DNA of 20,800 bases from Promethearchaeota archaeon (GTDB lineage Archaea > Asgardarchaeota > Lokiarchaeia > Sigyniarchaeales > SOKP01): assembly GCA_019058015.1 (NCBI GenBank), contig JAHLWH010000070.1:1-20800 (forward strand). Direction: 5' to 3'. Both the position numbers and the translations under genes were made by a program. Shown piece after piece: positions 11,302-17,765 of this stretch (position 1 is the first letter of the stretch; every line of letters starts with the position of its first letter). The notes under the pieces were generated by a model, which made no database searches, was not told the DNA's origin, and worked only from the letters and a program-made list of their open reading frames with translations.

Positions 11302-11706
11302 TTAAAGTTCATTTAGTTCTGCAATATACATCAAGGGGTATTCAAAATCTTCTATCCATTTTATTTTTGCTTTAACTTCAACCTTCTTAAATTGAACTAC
11401 TAAGTCAGCTTCTATTGTTTTACCAGAGATTTCATCGTAATCGAATTCATTTTCTTTTTTTCCTTTTAAATTTTCTCTTCTGAGGTTTATTTTTACAGAT
11501 TTTACGTAAGGTTGACAAGATATTGCTTGTTCTATACCTATTTCAATCGACTTAATGACATTTTCATTTGTATTAATAGGAATTCCGCATAAAATGTGAT
11601 AAAGGGCACCTAATTTAATACCCGTCTCAAATGTTGCCCTTTCTTTATCCGTAAGATCTTTTGCAAAATGAATTTTGATTTTTTCTTCAGTGTTATTCTT
11701 CTTCAA
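11302..11706 (-). CDS. mptD: Archaeal dihydroneopterin aldolase (MptD/DUF381 family), TTG start
   Basis: ERATFETGIKLGALYH...IEQAISCQPYV...YPLMYI; overlaps the end of the RFAP synthase gene. Confidence 0.82.
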   Translation of the reverse strand: MKKNNTEEKIKIHFAKDLTDKERATFETGIKLGALYHILCGIPINTNENVIKSIEIGIEQAISCQPYVKSVKINLRRENLKGKKENEFDYDEISGKTIEADLVVQFKKVEVKAKIKWIEDFEYPLMYIAELNEL

Positions 11707-12700
11707 CTTTTATTTCTGCTCCAGTATTATTAGGTTTTGCAATTAAAACAGTACCTCCGAAATCTTTAAGAAATTCTTCGCATTTAGGTTTTAAAATGTT
11801 TGCAGACTCATCATTTTCAGTAATTGCAACTATGCATGGTCCAAAAGAGGACATTCCATAAGCTTTTACTTCTTCGGCTTCTAAAAATTTCATTAGTTTT
11901 TTAACGATTGGATCTTGTAATTCTATTTCGATTTTCTTGAAACCAATTTTTTGAATCCGTTTTATTCCTTGTCCAAAGCAATTTAAATCGTTTTTTATTA
12001 ATCCCGGTAAAATTTTCATAATAATTTGATGTGAAACTTCATTGACTTCTTCTCGATTAATGGGCGCAAATTCTTGAAAAATATTTACTTCTTCTTGGTT
12101 ATGAGCTCCTTGTTTTAAATTAGGAAGAATTACTACAAACCTCCAATTCTCGGGAATAGGGTATCTAAGGATAGTTAAAGCAGGGTTTGCTGATGAAGAA
12201 GCTGAAGATGGTAAGTAAGTTTCTTTCTCTCTTCCATTACCGAAATCGTGCCCCGCATCTAAGATAAAACCACCTTGTTCAAAACCCCTCCACCCAATTC
12301 CGGATGTACCTCCTCTCCCAACTATTTTTGTAATCTTTTCTATGGGTAAATTTGCCCCTTCTAATTTAGCTATTGCTAAACCGATTGCTAAGCTTAATTG
12401 AGTTTTTGATCCAATTCCTAAATGTTCCGGATAATATTCCTTAATTATGAAATGGTAATTCTTATTTTTAACATTAAGAGCATTTGTGATCGCCTCAGTT
12501 TTTTCTTTAATGGTTGTTAAAAATCCATCATGAGGTTCATCAATTTCAATTTTTAACCCATCAGAATTATTTGAAACCTCTATCACAATATTAGGGGATT
12601 CTAACATAAGACCAATCCCACCATCAATTCTGCCAGTATACCCATTCTCATCAATTAAAGAGAAGTGTACCCTACACGGGGTTTTTATAGTGATTTTGAT
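11693..12700 (-). CDS. Beta-ribofuranosylaminobenzene 5'-phosphate (RFAP) synthase, GHMP superfamily (probable ATC start)
   Basis: The frame extends 31 codons above the called ATG: (ATC)KITIKTPCRVHFSLIDENGYTGRIDGGIGL. Also PEHLGIGSKTQLSLA, GRGGTSGIG, GGFILDAGH, GMSSFGP. Confidence 0.9.
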   Translation of the reverse strand: MKITIKTPCRVHFSLIDENGYTGRIDGGIGLMLESPNIVIEVSNNSDGLKIEIDEPHDGFLTTIKEKTEAITNALNVKNKNYHFIIKEYYPEHLGIGSKTQLSLAIGLAIAKLEGANLPIEKITKIVGRGGTSGIGWRGFEQGGFILDAGHDFGNGREKETYLPSSASSSANPALTILRYPIPENWRFVVILPNLKQGAHNQEEVNIFQEFAPINREEVNEVSHQIIMKILPGLIKNDLNCFGQGIKRIQKIGFKKIEIELQDPIVKKLMKFLEAEEVKAYGMSSFGPCIVAITENDESANILKPKCEEFLKDFGGTVLIAKPNNTGAEIKVEEE

Positions 12701-12797
12701 TGTAACTTCACCGAGGCAATTGACAAAAATAAATAACTACTATCAAATATTCTAGCATATCATTAATTTTTAAGTTTATTAAATTTGTGAAATAAAA

Positions 12798-13301
12798 ATG
12801 AGTGATTTAGAAGGTCTTACAAGAAATTTACTTAAAAAACAAAATTCTAAAATTGAAATCATTGAAAGATTAAAGCAAGAATATCTTGATTACAAAAATA
12901 TATCTCCACAAAAGGCAGAATTATTATCAAATGCAATCTATGAGGAATGTGTAAAGAGTGATACAAATTCGATAAGAAATAAATTTATTAAAAATCTACT
13001 CGAAATTCCTACAGCTAATGTTTCAATTGGAAAACAAGGAGTTGGGCGTAGAGGTCTAGGAGATCTTTTTGTGCATAAATTAATAGCTGAGCTTTCTATT
13101 ACGAAAAGTAAGGCGTTCTTGGCGCCAACTTCTCTTGATGATGCTGGAGCAATTCAATTGGGGAATTATAGTGATTTCAGAGGAAGAGAATTTATCAGTT
13201 CGGATGTATTAATTGTTTCAAAAATGGAAGGTATCCACTCTCGATAAAGTGATTTCCCATTTATTTGTGGTTTTCATGTAACTCGCGCTGTCCTAAGAAA
13301 T
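12798..13301 (+). pseudogene. Truncated, intronless duplicate of the 5' third of the PurM/AIR-synthase-like gene
   Basis: Aligns with 15277-15800 (MSDLEGLTR, GKQGVG, SLDDAGA, VSKMEGIHSR). TAA at 13245-13247 replaces Leu (TTA in the other copy), then reads SDFPFICGFHVTRAVLRN, after which homology ends. Confidence 0.8.
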
Positions 13302-13304
13302 TGC

Positions 13305-15095
13305 TTGGATATTTCTATAGGTCAGTGTATAAAATTTCTTGAAATTGGAATGAATTATAATAATTCGTGTTCGCGAAAAAAATCAAAACGCGAGCAAAAC
13401 AAGACCTTTATAAACACTAAGGTAGATTTATATCAAAAAAAGAGTACTACAATGGTTAATGTAGTTAAAAAGATAGAAGATATTAATATAAAAAAATCTA
13501 AAACCTTAGATGATCACCAAAATGACATTGAAGATATCGTTATAAAAAAGAAAGGAAGAATAATTGGTAGTGAATGGAGGTATATTGGTAAAAACAAAAG
13601 AAAAACACCATATTTCCTCATAGAATGCAATAGAGGTTGCGGTTATGATTGCGATGAAAAACGTGAATTTTGGAGAGATAAATATGAGTTAAAACCCTCT
13701 AAACGGTACCCAGACGGGAAATGGTGTCCATATAAAATAATTAATAAATCTTTAATTCGTCACCAAAGGGAAATTGAAGATATTGTCAGAATGAAAGGAG
13801 GGAAAATTATTGATGCAAAATGGAGATATATAGGTAAGAATAGAGAGAAAAAACCATATTTCCTCATAGAATGTGGTGGTGATAACGAAAATAATGAAAA
13901 ACATCAATGGTGGGTTGAAAAATACAAATTAAAGGGAAATAAGAGTAATCCAGAGGGTACTTGGTGTAATCAATGTCCAAAAGGAAAAACTTTAGAAGAG
14001 CATCAAAAGGATATTGAAGATATTGTCAGAATGAAAGGAGGGAAAATTATTAATGCCAAATGGAGATATGATGAAAAAAATCGCAAATACCCTTATTTCT
14101 ACATAGAATGTGGAGGTGATAATGAATACAATATGACACACCAATTTTGGATTTATAAAAATGATTTAATACCAGATAAAACCCATCAAGTTGGTGTTTG
14201 GTGTCGAGAATGTCAAAGTAAAACCTTAGACCAACACCAAAACGACATTGAGGAATATACTAAGTGGAGGGGAGGAAAGATAATTGATAGTGAATGGAAA
14301 TGCGTATATCATGGAAAATATAAAGCTAAAATACCACATTTTTATATAGAATGCGATAATGAAGAGGAAAAACACAGGTGGTGGGTTGCTAAGGGTAACC
14401 TACTTCCTAAGGCAAGCAATCCAACAGGATCATGGTGTAAAGTATGTAATGATAGAATTAGAGCTGTTAGCGAATACGCTCATATTATTATCGAATATTA
14501 TAGTTTGATATATTTAAATTTAAAAAATTGTAATGGACGACATGAAGACATTCTTGATGAGGGATCTCGACCAGATCTCATTATTAACAGAGATGATAAT
14601 TTCAAGTCCAACATTGAACCTCATCAAAATATTATATCATTTTCAAATAATGTAGTTCTAACAAATATAGAAGAAATTGCTGTTGATTTTACGATGTCAT
14701 TAATTCCTTCTAATATTATAAGAAAATGCTTTAGAAATTATCAAAATAAAAAAAGGTATCTACTGATTGTATTAATACAAGAAGAGGGTATCGTAACTGC
14801 ACAATATATGCAAAATCTAATTAATAATGACGCAGAACTCGATAATGAAGAAAAGGAATTAATTAAGGTTATAAATTTTGATGAATATTTGCAATTTTTG
14901 AACTTAGAAATAAAATTGGATTTATTAAATTTTGATAAATGGAATTCTTTGTCCGAAAAGGAAAAAGAAATAATATCAATGTTCAGAAAAACAATTAAAT
15001 TGAGTATAGATGCTACTGAATCGAGTTTTGCTCTCAAAGAACTAATAAAATTAAGTGAAAAAAACGGTAAATTACTCGGAATTGAAAATCATTAG
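13305..15095 (+). CDS. Protein with four tandem zinc-ribbon-like repeats and a putative PD-(D/E)XK-like C-terminal domain (true start uncertain)
   Basis: Repeats K(T/S)LxxHQxxIE...GxII...W...(F)xIEC...HxW/FW...GxWCxxC; C-terminal RHE...SRPDLII...IAVDFT. Confidence 0.7.
   Translation: MDISIGQCIKFLEIGMNYNNSCSRKKSKREQNKTFINTKVDLYQKKSTTMVNVVKKIEDINIKKSKTLDDHQNDIEDIVIKKKGRIIGSEWRYIGKNKRKTPYFLIECNRGCGYDCDEKREFWRDKYELKPSKRYPDGKWCPYKIINKSLIRHQREIEDIVRMKGGKIIDAKWRYIGKNREKKPYFLIECGGDNENNEKHQWWVEKYKLKGNKSNPEGTWCNQCPKGKTLEEHQKDIEDIVRMKGGKIINAKWRYDEKNRKYPYFYIECGGDNEYNMTHQFWIYKNDLIPDKTHQVGVWCRECQSKTLDQHQNDIEEYTKWRGGKIIDSEWKCVYHGKYKAKIPHFYIECDNEEEKHRWWVAKGNLLPKASNPTGSWCKVCNDRIRAVSEYAHIIIEYYSLIYLNLKNCNGRHEDILDEGSRPDLIINRDDNFKSNIEPHQNIISFSNNVVLTNIEEIAVDFTMSLIPSNIIRKCFRNYQNKKRYLLIVLIQEEGIVTAQYMQNLINNDAELDNEEKELIKVINFDEYLQFLNLEIKLDLLNFDKWNSLSEKEKEIISMFRKTIKLSIDATESSFALKELIKLSEKNGKLLGIENH
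13500..14447 (+). repeat. Four intragenic tandem repeats of about 78-82 codons
   Basis: Units start at 13500, 13746, 13986 and 14220. Units 2 and 3 share the exact 39-mer ATTGAAGATATTGTCAGAATGAAAGGAGGGAAAATTATT. Confidence 0.9.
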
Positions 15096-15276
15096 ACTTA
15101 TTTAATTTCTCAACATTGATGTAAGTAGAACTTTAAACATCTTCAGAAAAGGATGCAGCGATGATTTTATATAAAATATACTGATATTATTTAACATTTT
15201 GTTGAGCAATATATTTTATAACCCTATAATTTAATATAATTAATATTGATTTATATGTTTATTATAGGTTTTAATC

Positions 15277-16704
15277 TTGAGTGATTTAGAAGGTTTGACA
15301 AGAAGGTTAATGGAGAAAAGTTTCAATAAGGAACAGATAATTATACGCCTTGTTAATGAATATATGGATTTTAAAGAGATTGAGAAAGAGTCCGCAATCT
15401 TGCTTGCTGAAGCAATCTATGAGGAATGTAAAAATAGTGATATAAAGTCCATTTCAGATCCTTTTATGAGATATTTATTAGATATTAATATGGCAAACGT
15501 GACTATTGGAAAACAAGGAGTGGGTTGTAGAGGAGCAGGTGATTTTTTTGTGCATAAACTCATTGCAAAGTTATCTGAGACCGAGAAAAAAGCGTATTTA
15601 TCACCTAGTTCTTTAGATGATGCCGGTGCTGTGAGATTATCTGATATTAAAGGATTTGAAACAAAAGATGATTTAATCATTGTATCTAAAATGGAAGGGA
15701 TTCATAGTCGCTTAAGCGATTTTCCATTTATGTGCGGTTTTCACGTAATTTCACGTAACACGTTTATGTGAAGCGTAACGAGGGCTGCACTTCGAGACTT
15801 ATATGTAAAGGGAGCAAAACCTATCTCCATAATGATTGATACGCATTTGGGTGATGATGCTGATGTTGGAAAACTTTTTGATTTTATGGCTGGTATCTCG
15901 ACAATTTCCGAATTAACTAATGTTCCTATAACTGCAGGGTCTACTTTAAGAATTGGGGGTGATATGGTAATTGGAGATCGGCTTGTGGGGGGAATAGCTG
16001 CAGTAGGGGTGTGTAAAAGAATTTTAGCTCGACGAAATATAATTCCCGGCAATAAAATATTAATGACTGAAGGAGCTGGAGGGGGAACGATCACAACTAC
16101 TGCGATTTATTCAGGTAATCATGAGGTTGTTAAAGAAACCCTGAATATTAAATTCTTAAAAGCATGTGAGAAACTGTTGACTTCTGATTACACAGATAAG
16201 ATCCATTGCATGTGTGATGTGACTAATGGAGGTTTGAGAGGAGATTTATATGAGATTAATTATGAAGCAAAATGTGGAGTATTAATTCAAGAAAAAAAAG
16301 TAAAAAAATTGGTGAATCCCAGAGTCTTAGATCTTCTAAATAAAACGGGAGTAGATTATTTAGGTGTATCGTTAGATTCACTCTTGATATATTGTGATGA
16401 AAACATCAGCGAAGATATAATCAATGACTTAAAGGATATTGATATTAAATGTTCTGAAATTGGTCTTGTTGATGATTCAAATGAAGTGAAATTTATATTT
16501 ACAGATAAAAAGTCTGCAACAATTCTTCCAAGATTTAGAGAATCTGCTTACACTAAAATAAAAAAGCAGATTGGAGAAAAAACTCCTGAGGATTACAAAG
16601 AAATGGAAATAATGGTCAATGCTGCTGCAAAAAAAGCTCTAAATAAAAGAAAAGAAATTCTAGATTATATTATTTCAAATTTAAACAGACAAATAAAATT
16701 ATGA
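15277..16704 (+). CDS. PurM/AIR-synthase-like (HypE/SelD/ThiL superfamily) protein, join(15277..15748,15779..16704), 465 aa after splicing
   Basis: The ORF-track pieces 15277-15771 and 15832-16704 are in the same frame. Motifs DDAGAV, EGIHSRLSDFPF, GFHV|TRAALRDLYVKGAKP, GSTLRIGGDMVIGDR, CDVTNGGLRGD. Confidence 0.9.
15749..15778 (+). other. Predicted 30-nt BHB intron in a protein-coding gene
   Basis: 11-bp outer helix, 4-bp central helix ACGU/GCGU, 3-nt bulges AAU and AAC, 9-bp inner helix. Contains an in-frame TGA, and its removal restores H-V-T-R. Confidence 0.88.
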
Positions 16705-17765
16705 ACTATTTTACTAAATATGACCTAATAAATAGTTTAGAAGGATGTATATCGTACATAGAATTAAATTATAACGAAGGCACGGTTGTTGTTTCTGAAT
16801 ATGGTGCGCGAGTATTAGGTATATTTCCAAAAAAGGAATGTATTAATCTTCTATGGGTTAATCCTTTAATAAAAGATCTTATTACTAAAAACGAGTGGAA
16901 TATTGGCGGTGATCGCTACTGGATTAGTCCTGAGAGGTTATTTTTCTATAAAAGTCCTGAATCGTGGGAAAGTTGGTTTTGTCCTGAAGGACTCGATCCT
17001 GCAGATTTTAAAATAACATCTTCTTCCAACACAAGTTGTCTTATAACTTCAGATATTTCTTTAACTAATCAATTAAATAAAAAAACTTATAATGGTAAAA
17101 TAAAGCGATACATTTCACTGGTTAAGGAACCAATTAGTACTGGAGTTGCCTATTGTGGGATTCAATATTTAGACGATTGTACACTTTTCGCACCCGATCT
17201 ACAAATTAACGGTTGGACTTTAACTCAGATAATATCGGGCAGTACGGAGAATCCTGGAACTGTGTTAATTCCAACTAAGAAAAATCCAAAACCTCAATCC
17301 TATTTTAGAACCATTCCAAACGACCGTATAAAAATAATGGATACATATGTGGCGTTCAAAATTGATGTTGATGACATCTATAAACTCGGAATTCGACCAG
17401 AAGATATTGATTTAAAGCGAGCAGCAAAAATTGGTTACATTTTAAAAATTCCAAATTCAGAAGATCATTTTTTTATAGTTAAGGTTTCTTTTGATATTGC
17501 TGAATCTCAAGAACAATGCTTTGATATATCCAGAGATCACCCTAATGCTGAAATTGGAGTAATTCAATCCTATAACGCTGAATCTCCAGATAAAAGTAAT
17601 CTCATGTTCGGTGAAATAGAACTACAATTAAAGCCCTTCAAAACCGTCAACCAAAAATCTCAAGGATTTGCTAAACATCAATTATTTGGATATCTTGGCA
17701 CAAAAGAAGAAATTCTAAATGTTGTTGAAAAATATCTCGGAATTATAAACCCAAAACTATTTTAA
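16701..17765 (+). CDS. Uncharacterised protein, possibly DUF6786/galactose-mutarotase-like fold
   Basis: 354-aa ORF with YGARVLG and WNIGGDRYWISPE; ATGA overlap with the upstream stop suggests translational coupling. Family assignment is tentative. Confidence 0.6.
   Translation: MNYFTKYDLINSLEGCISYIELNYNEGTVVVSEYGARVLGIFPKKECINLLWVNPLIKDLITKNEWNIGGDRYWISPERLFFYKSPESWESWFCPEGLDPADFKITSSSNTSCLITSDISLTNQLNKKTYNGKIKRYISLVKEPISTGVAYCGIQYLDDCTLFAPDLQINGWTLTQIISGSTENPGTVLIPTKKNPKPQSYFRTIPNDRIKIMDTYVAFKIDVDDIYKLGIRPEDIDLKRAAKIGYILKIPNSEDHFFIVKVSFDIAESQEQCFDISRDHPNAEIGVIQSYNAESPDKSNLMFGEIELQLKPFKTVNQKSQGFAKHQLFGYLGTKEEILNVVEKYLGIINPKLF

Follow-up and report, generated by a model that had tools for sequence, protein, structure and literature searches.

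A predicted tRNA-type mini-intron in a metabolic gene of Asgard archaea and its possible cooperative homing cassette

Archaeal tRNA and rRNA genes contain introns that form a bulge-helix-bulge (BHB) and are processed by EndA and RtcB; the rRNA introns are made mobile by a DNA endonuclease and insert exactly at one site. In the "collaborative homing" of T-even phages a free-standing homing endonuclease gene acts together with a group I intron that has no open reading frame (ORF) of its own. In eukaryotes, HAC1/XBP1 mRNA splicing uses a protein endonuclease that cuts at stem-loops and a tRNA ligase that seals the ends (RtcB in animals), and the reading frame is changed. According to the part of PMC2738675 available to us, archaeal rRNA introns that encode homing endonucleases exist, and the cbf5 introns of Crenarchaeota are 16-44 bp, too short to encode a nuclease. 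In the open full-text literature that we searched, which leaves subscription journals uncovered, cbf5 is the only archaeal protein-coding gene with a reported BHB intron. For the tRNA introns of Asgard archaea, a 2026 preprint infers numerous gains, and the term "mRNA" is absent from the part available. How ORF-less BHB introns are gained had stayed open. Here we describe a 30-nt insert in a gene related to AIR synthase, on a contig of a Promethearchaeota archaeon (JAHLWH010000070.1), which is very probably a BHB intron and which lies at the 3' end of a larger insertion with a candidate nuclease gene. The stretch analyzed, called the window below, is this contig in full (20.8 kb); it belongs to an archaeal genome of 3.84 Mb with 29.4% G+C.

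The interrupted gene encodes an AIR-synthase-related protein of the PurM superfamily (Pfam AIRS and AIRS_C). A first ORF runs on the forward strand from a TTG start at 15277 to an in-frame TGA at 15769-71, and a second ORF in the matching frame ends at 16704. A complete helix-bulge-helix-bulge-helix (hBHBh') motif is found at 15732..15790. Its outer helix (15732-42/15780-90) has 11 pairs, four of them G-U, and its central helix (15743-46/15773-76) has 4 bp. The two bulges, AAU at 15747-49 and AAC at 15777-79, are 3 nt each, and the inner helix (15750-58/15764-72, 9 bp) is closed by a loop at 15759-63. An earlier note on this DNA had given all these helices, bulges and the loop, and direct reading of the sequence showed every coordinate to be correct. 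It had also claimed that the RNA folds into the full motif; the minimum free energy (MFE) structure that RNAfold returned for 15732-15790 is identical to it (-24.0 kcal/mol, z -4.2), with none of 200 shuffled sequences as stable.

By the canonical rule, EndA would cleave each bulge behind its second base. The predicted cuts thus follow 15748 and 15778, releasing a 30-nt intron (15749..15778) that contains the in-frame TGA at 15769-71. The same rule yields a 7-nt anticodon loop for the canonical 37/38 tRNA intron. Removal of exactly these 30 nt leaves CAC GTA A|CG AGG, encoding His-Val-Thr-Arg, with the Thr codon A|CG rejoined and both ORFs in frame, as the earlier note had read it. The first exon (exon 1', 15277..15748), an acquired replacement 5' exon with the TTG start, holds 157 codons and the first base of the Thr codon. 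The native exon 2 (15779..16704) encodes the rest of the AIRS N-domain and AIRS_C, and its stop, TGA at 16702-04, overlaps the start of the next gene. Joined, the two exons would code for a protein of about 465 aa. Exon 2 of the window alone scored 43.5 bits with Pfam AIRS_C and 24.1 bits with AIRS. The intron-less ortholog in the same-genus genome G004 scored 44.6 (cut-off 23.1) and 32.6 (cut-off 24), respectively, with the AIRS match spanning the intron site. An NCBIfam scan of the gene found no equivalog at its cut-off, and the specific reaction was therefore not assigned. Rfam and ARAGORN scans of the window gave no matches.

To determine how widespread the insert is, we surveyed related genomes. 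The AIR-synthase-related gene is present in 58 out of 61 of them. A covariance model of the insert, built from nine carriers and run on the 135 species genomes of the family, matched at full length in 28 of them, once in each and never outside this gene. The carriers come from six genera: g1 (2 out of 5 genomes), g4 (3 of 4), g9 (1 of 2), g6 (4 of 10), g11 (10 of 54) and g2 (8 of 42). Two further weak matches of 43 nt are intron-less genes. Within the family, 23 orthologs are without the insert, as are all 17 orthologs fetched from other families. In every carrier the insert sits at the same codon. It is 30 nt long in 20 species, always with an in-frame stop, and 29 nt long in the other eight, causing a frameshift. 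Translation is thus broken by the insert in all 28, while both exons are intact in all 28. The canonical EndA cuts restore the frame and His-Val-Thr-Arg in each of them, for 29- and 30-nt inserts alike.

The pairing is maintained across these species. In the 28-sequence alignment (A2), 96.8% of helix cells are paired, versus 32-53% in controls with the partner strand shifted 1-3 columns, and for the central helix the value is 98.2%. An independent MAFFT alignment of nine carriers gave 96.7%. Seven pairs have changed on both sides, a number reached by none of 500 shuffles, and six of the seven are in the 9-pair inner helix. The earlier note had called for an alignment of orthologs, and both the insert and helix covariation are found in the 28 species. 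Codon use in the flanking exons also differs from that of intron-less genes. Thr is ACG in 28/28 carriers versus 5/40 intron-less genes, His is CAC in 27/28 versus 10/40, Arg is AGR in 28/28 versus 20/40, and the Gly codon GGA occurs in 0/28 versus 26/40. The exon codons within the helices thus appear to be biased toward keeping the pairing. For 12 chosen carrier pairs dN/dS is 0.06-0.30 in both exons, consistent with purifying selection on each. In a further genome (L042, G015:C97) the ortholog is intron-less at the site and some 120 residues are missing from the interior of its exon 2, as only residues 1-63 and 183-297 are matched, 122 nt apart; judging by its sequence it is probably a broken gene.

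We also examined how common such motifs are in the window genome. A strict hBHBh' scan covered both strands of all 3.84 Mb, requiring an outer helix of at least 7 pairs, an inner helix of at least 4 and an intron of 12-200 nt. The best of its 2,089 motifs is 15732-15790 (-24.0), and the runner-up reaches -13.1. A scan for split ORFs, as the earlier note had suggested, used strict motifs with introns of up to 200 nt (relaxed BHB forms were left out) whose removal joins two open frames of at least 60 codons. It returned 2,396 sites open on both sides, of which 266 need the removal to stay open, and 78 of these are at most 110 nt. A strongly negative motif energy was seen at this site alone among the 78 short candidates, and the two ranked next, C219:701-748 and C207:6127-6169, were rejected as ordinary adjacent genes.

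Genes for the predicted splicing enzymes are encoded in the same genome. Two EndA-type genes, on contigs C235 (869-1471, minus strand) and C115 (11248-11868), each code for both Pfam endonuclease domains (PF01974 at 100 and 67.6 bits), and there is one RtcB gene, on contig C65 (PF01139 at 577.5 bits). Of the tRNAs detected by ARAGORN, 15 out of 21 have introns. As only 21 tRNAs were detected in a genome that is 94% complete, many intron-rich tRNA genes were probably missed by the program. Two small contigs of this genome, G000, each carry an intron-containing tRNA with the anticodon CTA, labeled "tRNA-Pyl" by ARAGORN (C241 234-339 and C245 126-231).

The earlier note proposed EndA/RtcB-dependent mRNA splicing of a metabolic gene in a probable Asgard archaeon. 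The close relatives are indeed Promethearchaeota/Promethearchaeia, and the proposed splicing is supported by the conservation in 28 species, the pairing, the codon co-variation, the dN/dS values and the enzyme genes. We consider it highly probable that 15749-15778 is a tRNA-type BHB intron spliced from the mRNA of this gene.

The DNA layout around the intron indicates how it reached the window genome. It forms the last 30 nt of an inserted cassette of 2,497 bp (13282..15778), which the earlier note had not recognized. The insertion point coincides with the splice junction (GTAA|C), and a repeat of GTAAC lets the ends slide by up to 5 nt. From left to right the cassette comprises a 21-nt stub resembling the start of exon 2, a gene that we call ORF596, an upstream region of its own, the foreign exon 1' and the mini-intron. 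DNA contigs from two other studies have an empty site. They skip exactly 2,497 nt (13277->15775 and 13286->15784), with four to five letters ambiguous because GTAAC is repeated, and join the upstream exon-1 copy straight to exon 2. The site is also empty in the same-genus genomes G004 and G001. The exact skip in the contigs and the break in homology with G004 together identify 13282-15778 as an insertion exactly at the splice junction. The occupied form is found in the window, X3 and X8, and it occurs without indels in a contig of a third study.

Upstream of the cassette is the displaced native exon 1 (copy A, 12798..13281), a pseudogene fragment with a TAA at 13245-47. The empty-site contigs have a T at 13246, giving TTA (Leu) where the window has TAA. 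Copy A and the neighboring beta-ribofuranosylaminobenzene 5'-phosphate (beta-RFAP) synthase gene are 96.8% identical in nucleotides to the region of the intact intron-less gene in G004, and the homology ends at the splice-site base. The earlier note took this upstream sequence for an intron-less paralog. It does read GFHVTRA (13270-13290), and the codons ACT CGC are present, but there is no paralog: the reading passes from the displaced native 5' exon into the left end of the cassette, to which these two codons belong. The stub (13282-13302) encodes T-R-A-V-L-R-N, the residues with which exon 2 starts, in different codons. In another reading, copy A would be the 5' exon and the entire 2.5-kb insert would be spliced out. 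Pairing with the 3' half seemed possible by eye, but copy A contains a stop codon and the idea was set aside.

Exon 1' came with its own upstream region (15096..15276), which is A/T-rich, has TTTATAT about 35 nt before the start and, by its sequence, may act as a promoter. Positions 15208-15277 align with the upstream region of G024, a genome of genus g2, and differ from the native upstream region at 12632-12797. The protein encoded by exon 1' is likewise 83% identical to that of G024 versus 62% to those of the same-genus G001/G004, while the exon 2 protein is 92-94% identical to that of G001/G004. Each exon was given its own tree of 55 rows, from which three partial rows (L042, L083 and L095) and, of the 17 loci fetched from other families, 11 were omitted. 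In the exon-1 tree the window genome and its sister species G002 fall inside a clade of 14 carriers from g2 and g11 with 99% support. With exon 2, the four g1 genomes group together at 100% support. The intron label changes seven times on the exon-1 tree and 14 times on the exon-2 tree, at least nine of the 14 being forced by well-supported branches. In several carrier pairs the two exons have very different synonymous divergence (dS), for example 0.96 in exon 1 and 0.18 in exon 2 for G020 versus G033.

The sister species G002 has the native upstream region with an ATG, a shared stretch of 16 nt, and then exon 1', the intron and the native exon 2. This is the product expected from a deletion between the two exon-1 starts. 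One genus therefore holds a natural series of an empty site (G004, G001 and contigs of two metagenomes), a fresh insertion with a displaced exon (the window) and a resolved recombinant (G002). In a contig from run X5 the match to exon 1' ends at 15746 and exon-2-like sequence follows at once, with no intron between, so intron-less alleles with this type of exon 1 also occur in the X5 sample.

Among the other 134 species genomes of the family, none codes for a close homolog of ORF596 (the best is 45% identical). Homologs with 69-96% identity were found on ten metagenome contigs. In all eight that reach far enough downstream, the ORF596 homolog is followed by an exon 1' 81-96% identical to that of the window, and the BHB is present in all seven that reach the junction. 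Exon 2 on these contigs is 71-95% identical to that of the window, indicating that their hosts differ. L187 has the same layout as the window. L192 has a different, intact displaced exon 1 that ends exactly at ...CACGTAA|. Next to it come the 3' portion of a gene X, which is unrelated, and then ORF596, exon 1' and the intron; the stub is absent from L192. In L190, gene X is complete ahead of ORF596, exon 1' and the intron, and there is no duplication. From these layouts, the left arm is variable but the left junction stays at the splice-site base. In G068 (genus g6) an 87-aa remnant of the ORF596 tail lies just upstream of the carrier gene.

ORF596 (13305..15095, forward strand) encodes four repeats of about 75 aa ending in CxxC-like motifs and a C-terminal domain at about aa 360-596. 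The part conserved among homologs begins near an ATG at 13452. A fusion of ORF596 to the displaced exon 1 was considered and rejected, as homologs align only from about residue 48-64 and have starts of their own. An AF2/AlphaFold model of the C-terminal 237 residues, made from a nine-sequence alignment, has a mean confidence (pLDDT) of 84.6. Its structural matches are nearly all PD-(D/E)xK nucleases, though weak ones (best E 7e-3, best Z 7.0), and include MspJI, HindIII, EcoO109I, the R2 endonuclease domain, Can2 and AF1548. Six residues are invariant in nine sequences (H34, E38, E55, D65, D102 and K115). The relative P0019, with 39% identity in the C-terminal domain, has four PF14311 treble-clef zinc fingers. 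The modeled fold suggests that the C-terminal domain is a probable PD-(D/E)xK nuclease domain, and on the same basis we lean somewhat toward ORF596 being a site-specific nuclease. The C-terminal domain defines a family of proteins of 540-720 aa with variable, zinc-finger-rich N-termini. It is encoded in 10 of the 61 relatives, with four copies each in G006 and G009, and the loci include L057, L058, L066 and L067.

The 2,497-bp insertion is most likely a mobile cassette that installed the intron. A homing-like behavior is supported by the empty-site alleles, the recombinant in the sister species and the eight metagenome contigs with the same gene order. We propose the following route, which we regard as having about an even chance of being right. 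ORF596 would cut the intron-less junction. The exon-2 end of the break would then invade an allele bearing the cassette and copy leftwards through the intron, exon 1' and ORF596. The copy would often be end-joined to the broken native exon 1, because exon 1' is too diverged to anneal with it, giving the fixed left junction and the variable left arms. The mini-intron would protect carriers, as it splits the target site in the DNA and would be gone from the mRNA. In the splicing itself, which we rate as much more likely than this route, the two EndA-type subunits would cut after 15748 and after 15778, and RtcB would join the exons to encode ...His-Val-Thr-Arg... while the 30-nt intron is released, probably as a circle. 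A later deletion between the two exon-1 copies, together with decay, may then have stripped away both displaced exon and nuclease gene, which would be the state of 26 of the 28 carrier species genomes.

Several other explanations were weighed against splicing. Ribosome hopping occurs in phage T4 gene 60, and in a programmed bypass of this kind translation would take off at GUA 15745-47 and land at GUA 15775-77, skipping 30 nt with no cut in the RNA. Matching GTA codons do flank the insert in the window and most carriers, with a stable hairpin between them. However, with bypass the residue after Val would be Ser (TCG) in 25 carriers out of 28 and Ala (GCG) in G022, whereas the BHB cuts give Thr in all 28 and intron-less genes have Thr (ACN) in 38 out of 40. 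There is no stop codon after the take-off codon, and the exact 3-nt bulges, the 4-bp central helix and the codon bias in the outer helix would be left unexplained, making bypass highly improbable. A dead or split gene is slightly less improbable, though still very unlikely. The insert would then be a hairpin footprint or att-like site that is never removed, in a pseudogene or between two separate polypeptides. Its position at the border of a 2.5-kb insertion and the pseudogene state of the displaced copy A would fit. On the other hand, both halves are open in 28 species at dN/dS of 0.06-0.30, and the insert occurs without nearby ORF596 sequence in 26 of the 28 carrier species genomes. The first ATG in the exon-2 frame of the window is 17 codons into conserved sequence, and neither helix covariation nor exon codon bias would have a role at a dead site. 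As for an assembly or sequencing artefact, nothing was found in its favor, and the insert is present in 27 other species genomes and, without indels, in contigs of other runs, one of them from another study; the chance of this explanation is negligible.

A more serious alternative accepts the splicing of the intron but has it spread solely by homologous recombination or gene conversion, with ORF596 as an unrelated passenger, such as a defense or selfish gene. The absence of ORF596 beside the gene in most carriers, its weak fold match and the occurrence of paralogs away from any BHB fit this alternative, as do the different exon-1 and exon-2 dS values of many carrier pairs. Yet in 8/8 informative contigs homologs of 69-96% identity are followed by exon 1', in hosts whose exon 2 is 71-95% identical to that of the window. 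Plain recombination is also hard to reconcile with a left border at exactly the splice-site base in two unrelated exon-1 backgrounds, with almost no homology there. We regard this alternative as possible but rather unlikely, and favor spliced intron and homing-like cassette together. A number of our results nevertheless weigh against this preferred reading. The carriers are kin, so counts over 28 species overstate their independence, and alignment A2 was fitted to the covariance model. The 20 sequencing runs with the sequence are all DNA, with no RNA run listed. ORF596 or its remnant is beside the gene in only two of the 28 carrier species genomes, and at 10 loci with ORF596-family paralogs in other genomes no BHB with a motif energy lower than -6 kcal/mol occurs in the flanking 1.5 kb. 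No usable match to ORF596 was found in Pfam, NCBIfam (one sub-threshold PadR match), PHROG, PDB sequences or the ESM Atlas; its model has no Foldseek match at E <= 0.001, and the best Z of 7.0 is below the tool's clear level, leaving the nuclease assignment weak. Under the approximately unbiased (AU) test, a topology that groups the four exon-1 sequences of genus g1 is not rejected (p 0.251), so the case for exon-1 replacement is built on the two physical copies and the identities and not on the tree test. Lastly, the cassette model leaves the 21-nt exon-2-like stub (TRAVLRN) at the left end unexplained.

The native divergent neighbor (11693..12607, reverse strand) belongs to the beta-RFAP synthase family (NCBIfam TIGR00144, 259 bits, above cut-off). 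A gene of this family is divergently paired with the AIR-synthase-related gene at a minimum of 16 fetched loci from several families. Beta-RFAP synthase acts in methanopterin biosynthesis, and the pairing hints at a role for the AIR-synthase-related enzyme in that pathway. Downstream, the start of a gene at 16701-17765 (DUF6786, 71 bits) and the stop of the intron-bearing gene share the letters ATGA. Given this overlap, the two are probably co-transcribed. Elsewhere in the window genome, an amidohydrolase-like gene on the minus strand of contig C219 (L068), D-aminoacylase-like by eye only, has an in-frame TAA at about 1584-1586 (...KNAKE*GIFLHADLYPY...). There is no BHB or insert at this stop, which is therefore a point nonsense change or the mark of a pseudogene. 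It is the second in-frame TAA met in this genome, after that of copy A.

In each carrier, gene callers will split the AIR-synthase-related gene into two fragments. In our judgment the insert in this metabolic gene of Asgard archaea is a real and conserved intron of the tRNA type, and its removal by splicing is very likely. That this mini-intron and a free-standing gene for a zinc-finger/PD-(D/E)xK nuclease form a cooperative homing cassette is about equally likely to be right or wrong. If it is right, intron gain in protein-coding genes is active and still running in the closest prokaryotic relatives of eukaryotes, and a single genus preserves its naive, intermediate and resolved stages side by side. 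Such a one-genus series makes the mechanism of gain directly testable.

Compared with known systems, the intron most resembles that of the cbf5 pre-mRNA of Desulfurococcales and Sulfolobales. As far as the available part of that work describes it, the cbf5 intron is also short, ORF-less, within a protein gene and folded into a BHB, and it too is associated with a splicing endonuclease of two subunits, its gains and losses being likewise patchy (PMC2738675). The genes and hosts differ, as cbf5 codes for an RNA-modifying enzyme and is crenarchaeal while the present gene is AIR-synthase-related and Asgard. The delivering DNA cassette is preserved here, whereas the same part of that work reports no nuclease associated with the cbf5 intron (PMC2738675). 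With the BHB introns of archaeal tRNA and rRNA our intron shares the motif geometry and the predicted use of EndA and RtcB. Unlike those introns, its substrate is an mRNA and the candidate nuclease gene is outside the mini-intron, upstream of the duplicated 5' exon. The rRNA-intron enzymes are of the LAGLIDADG type, while ORF596 resembles, by a weak fold match, a PD-(D/E)xK enzyme. HAC1/XBP1 splicing likewise involves an mRNA intron with a protein endonuclease and a ligase, both predicted here. There, however, the cuts are made by IRE1 and not by the tRNA splicing endonuclease, the splicing is regulatory and not selfish, and the systems are not homologous. The arrangement of the cassette is closest to collaborative homing. 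Both have a free-standing nuclease gene, a candidate in our case, by the target gene; in both an ORF-less intron splits the presumed target so that carriers are immune, or would be in our case, and nuclease gene and intron are inherited together with replacement of the flanking exon sequence. They differ in that the nuclease here is putative, the intron is an archaeal BHB intron, predicted to be spliced by proteins, and not a ribozyme, and exon 1 is duplicated in some of the products. What is new in the Asgard locus is the way in which the intron arrived, as the 3' end of an insertion at the splice junction.

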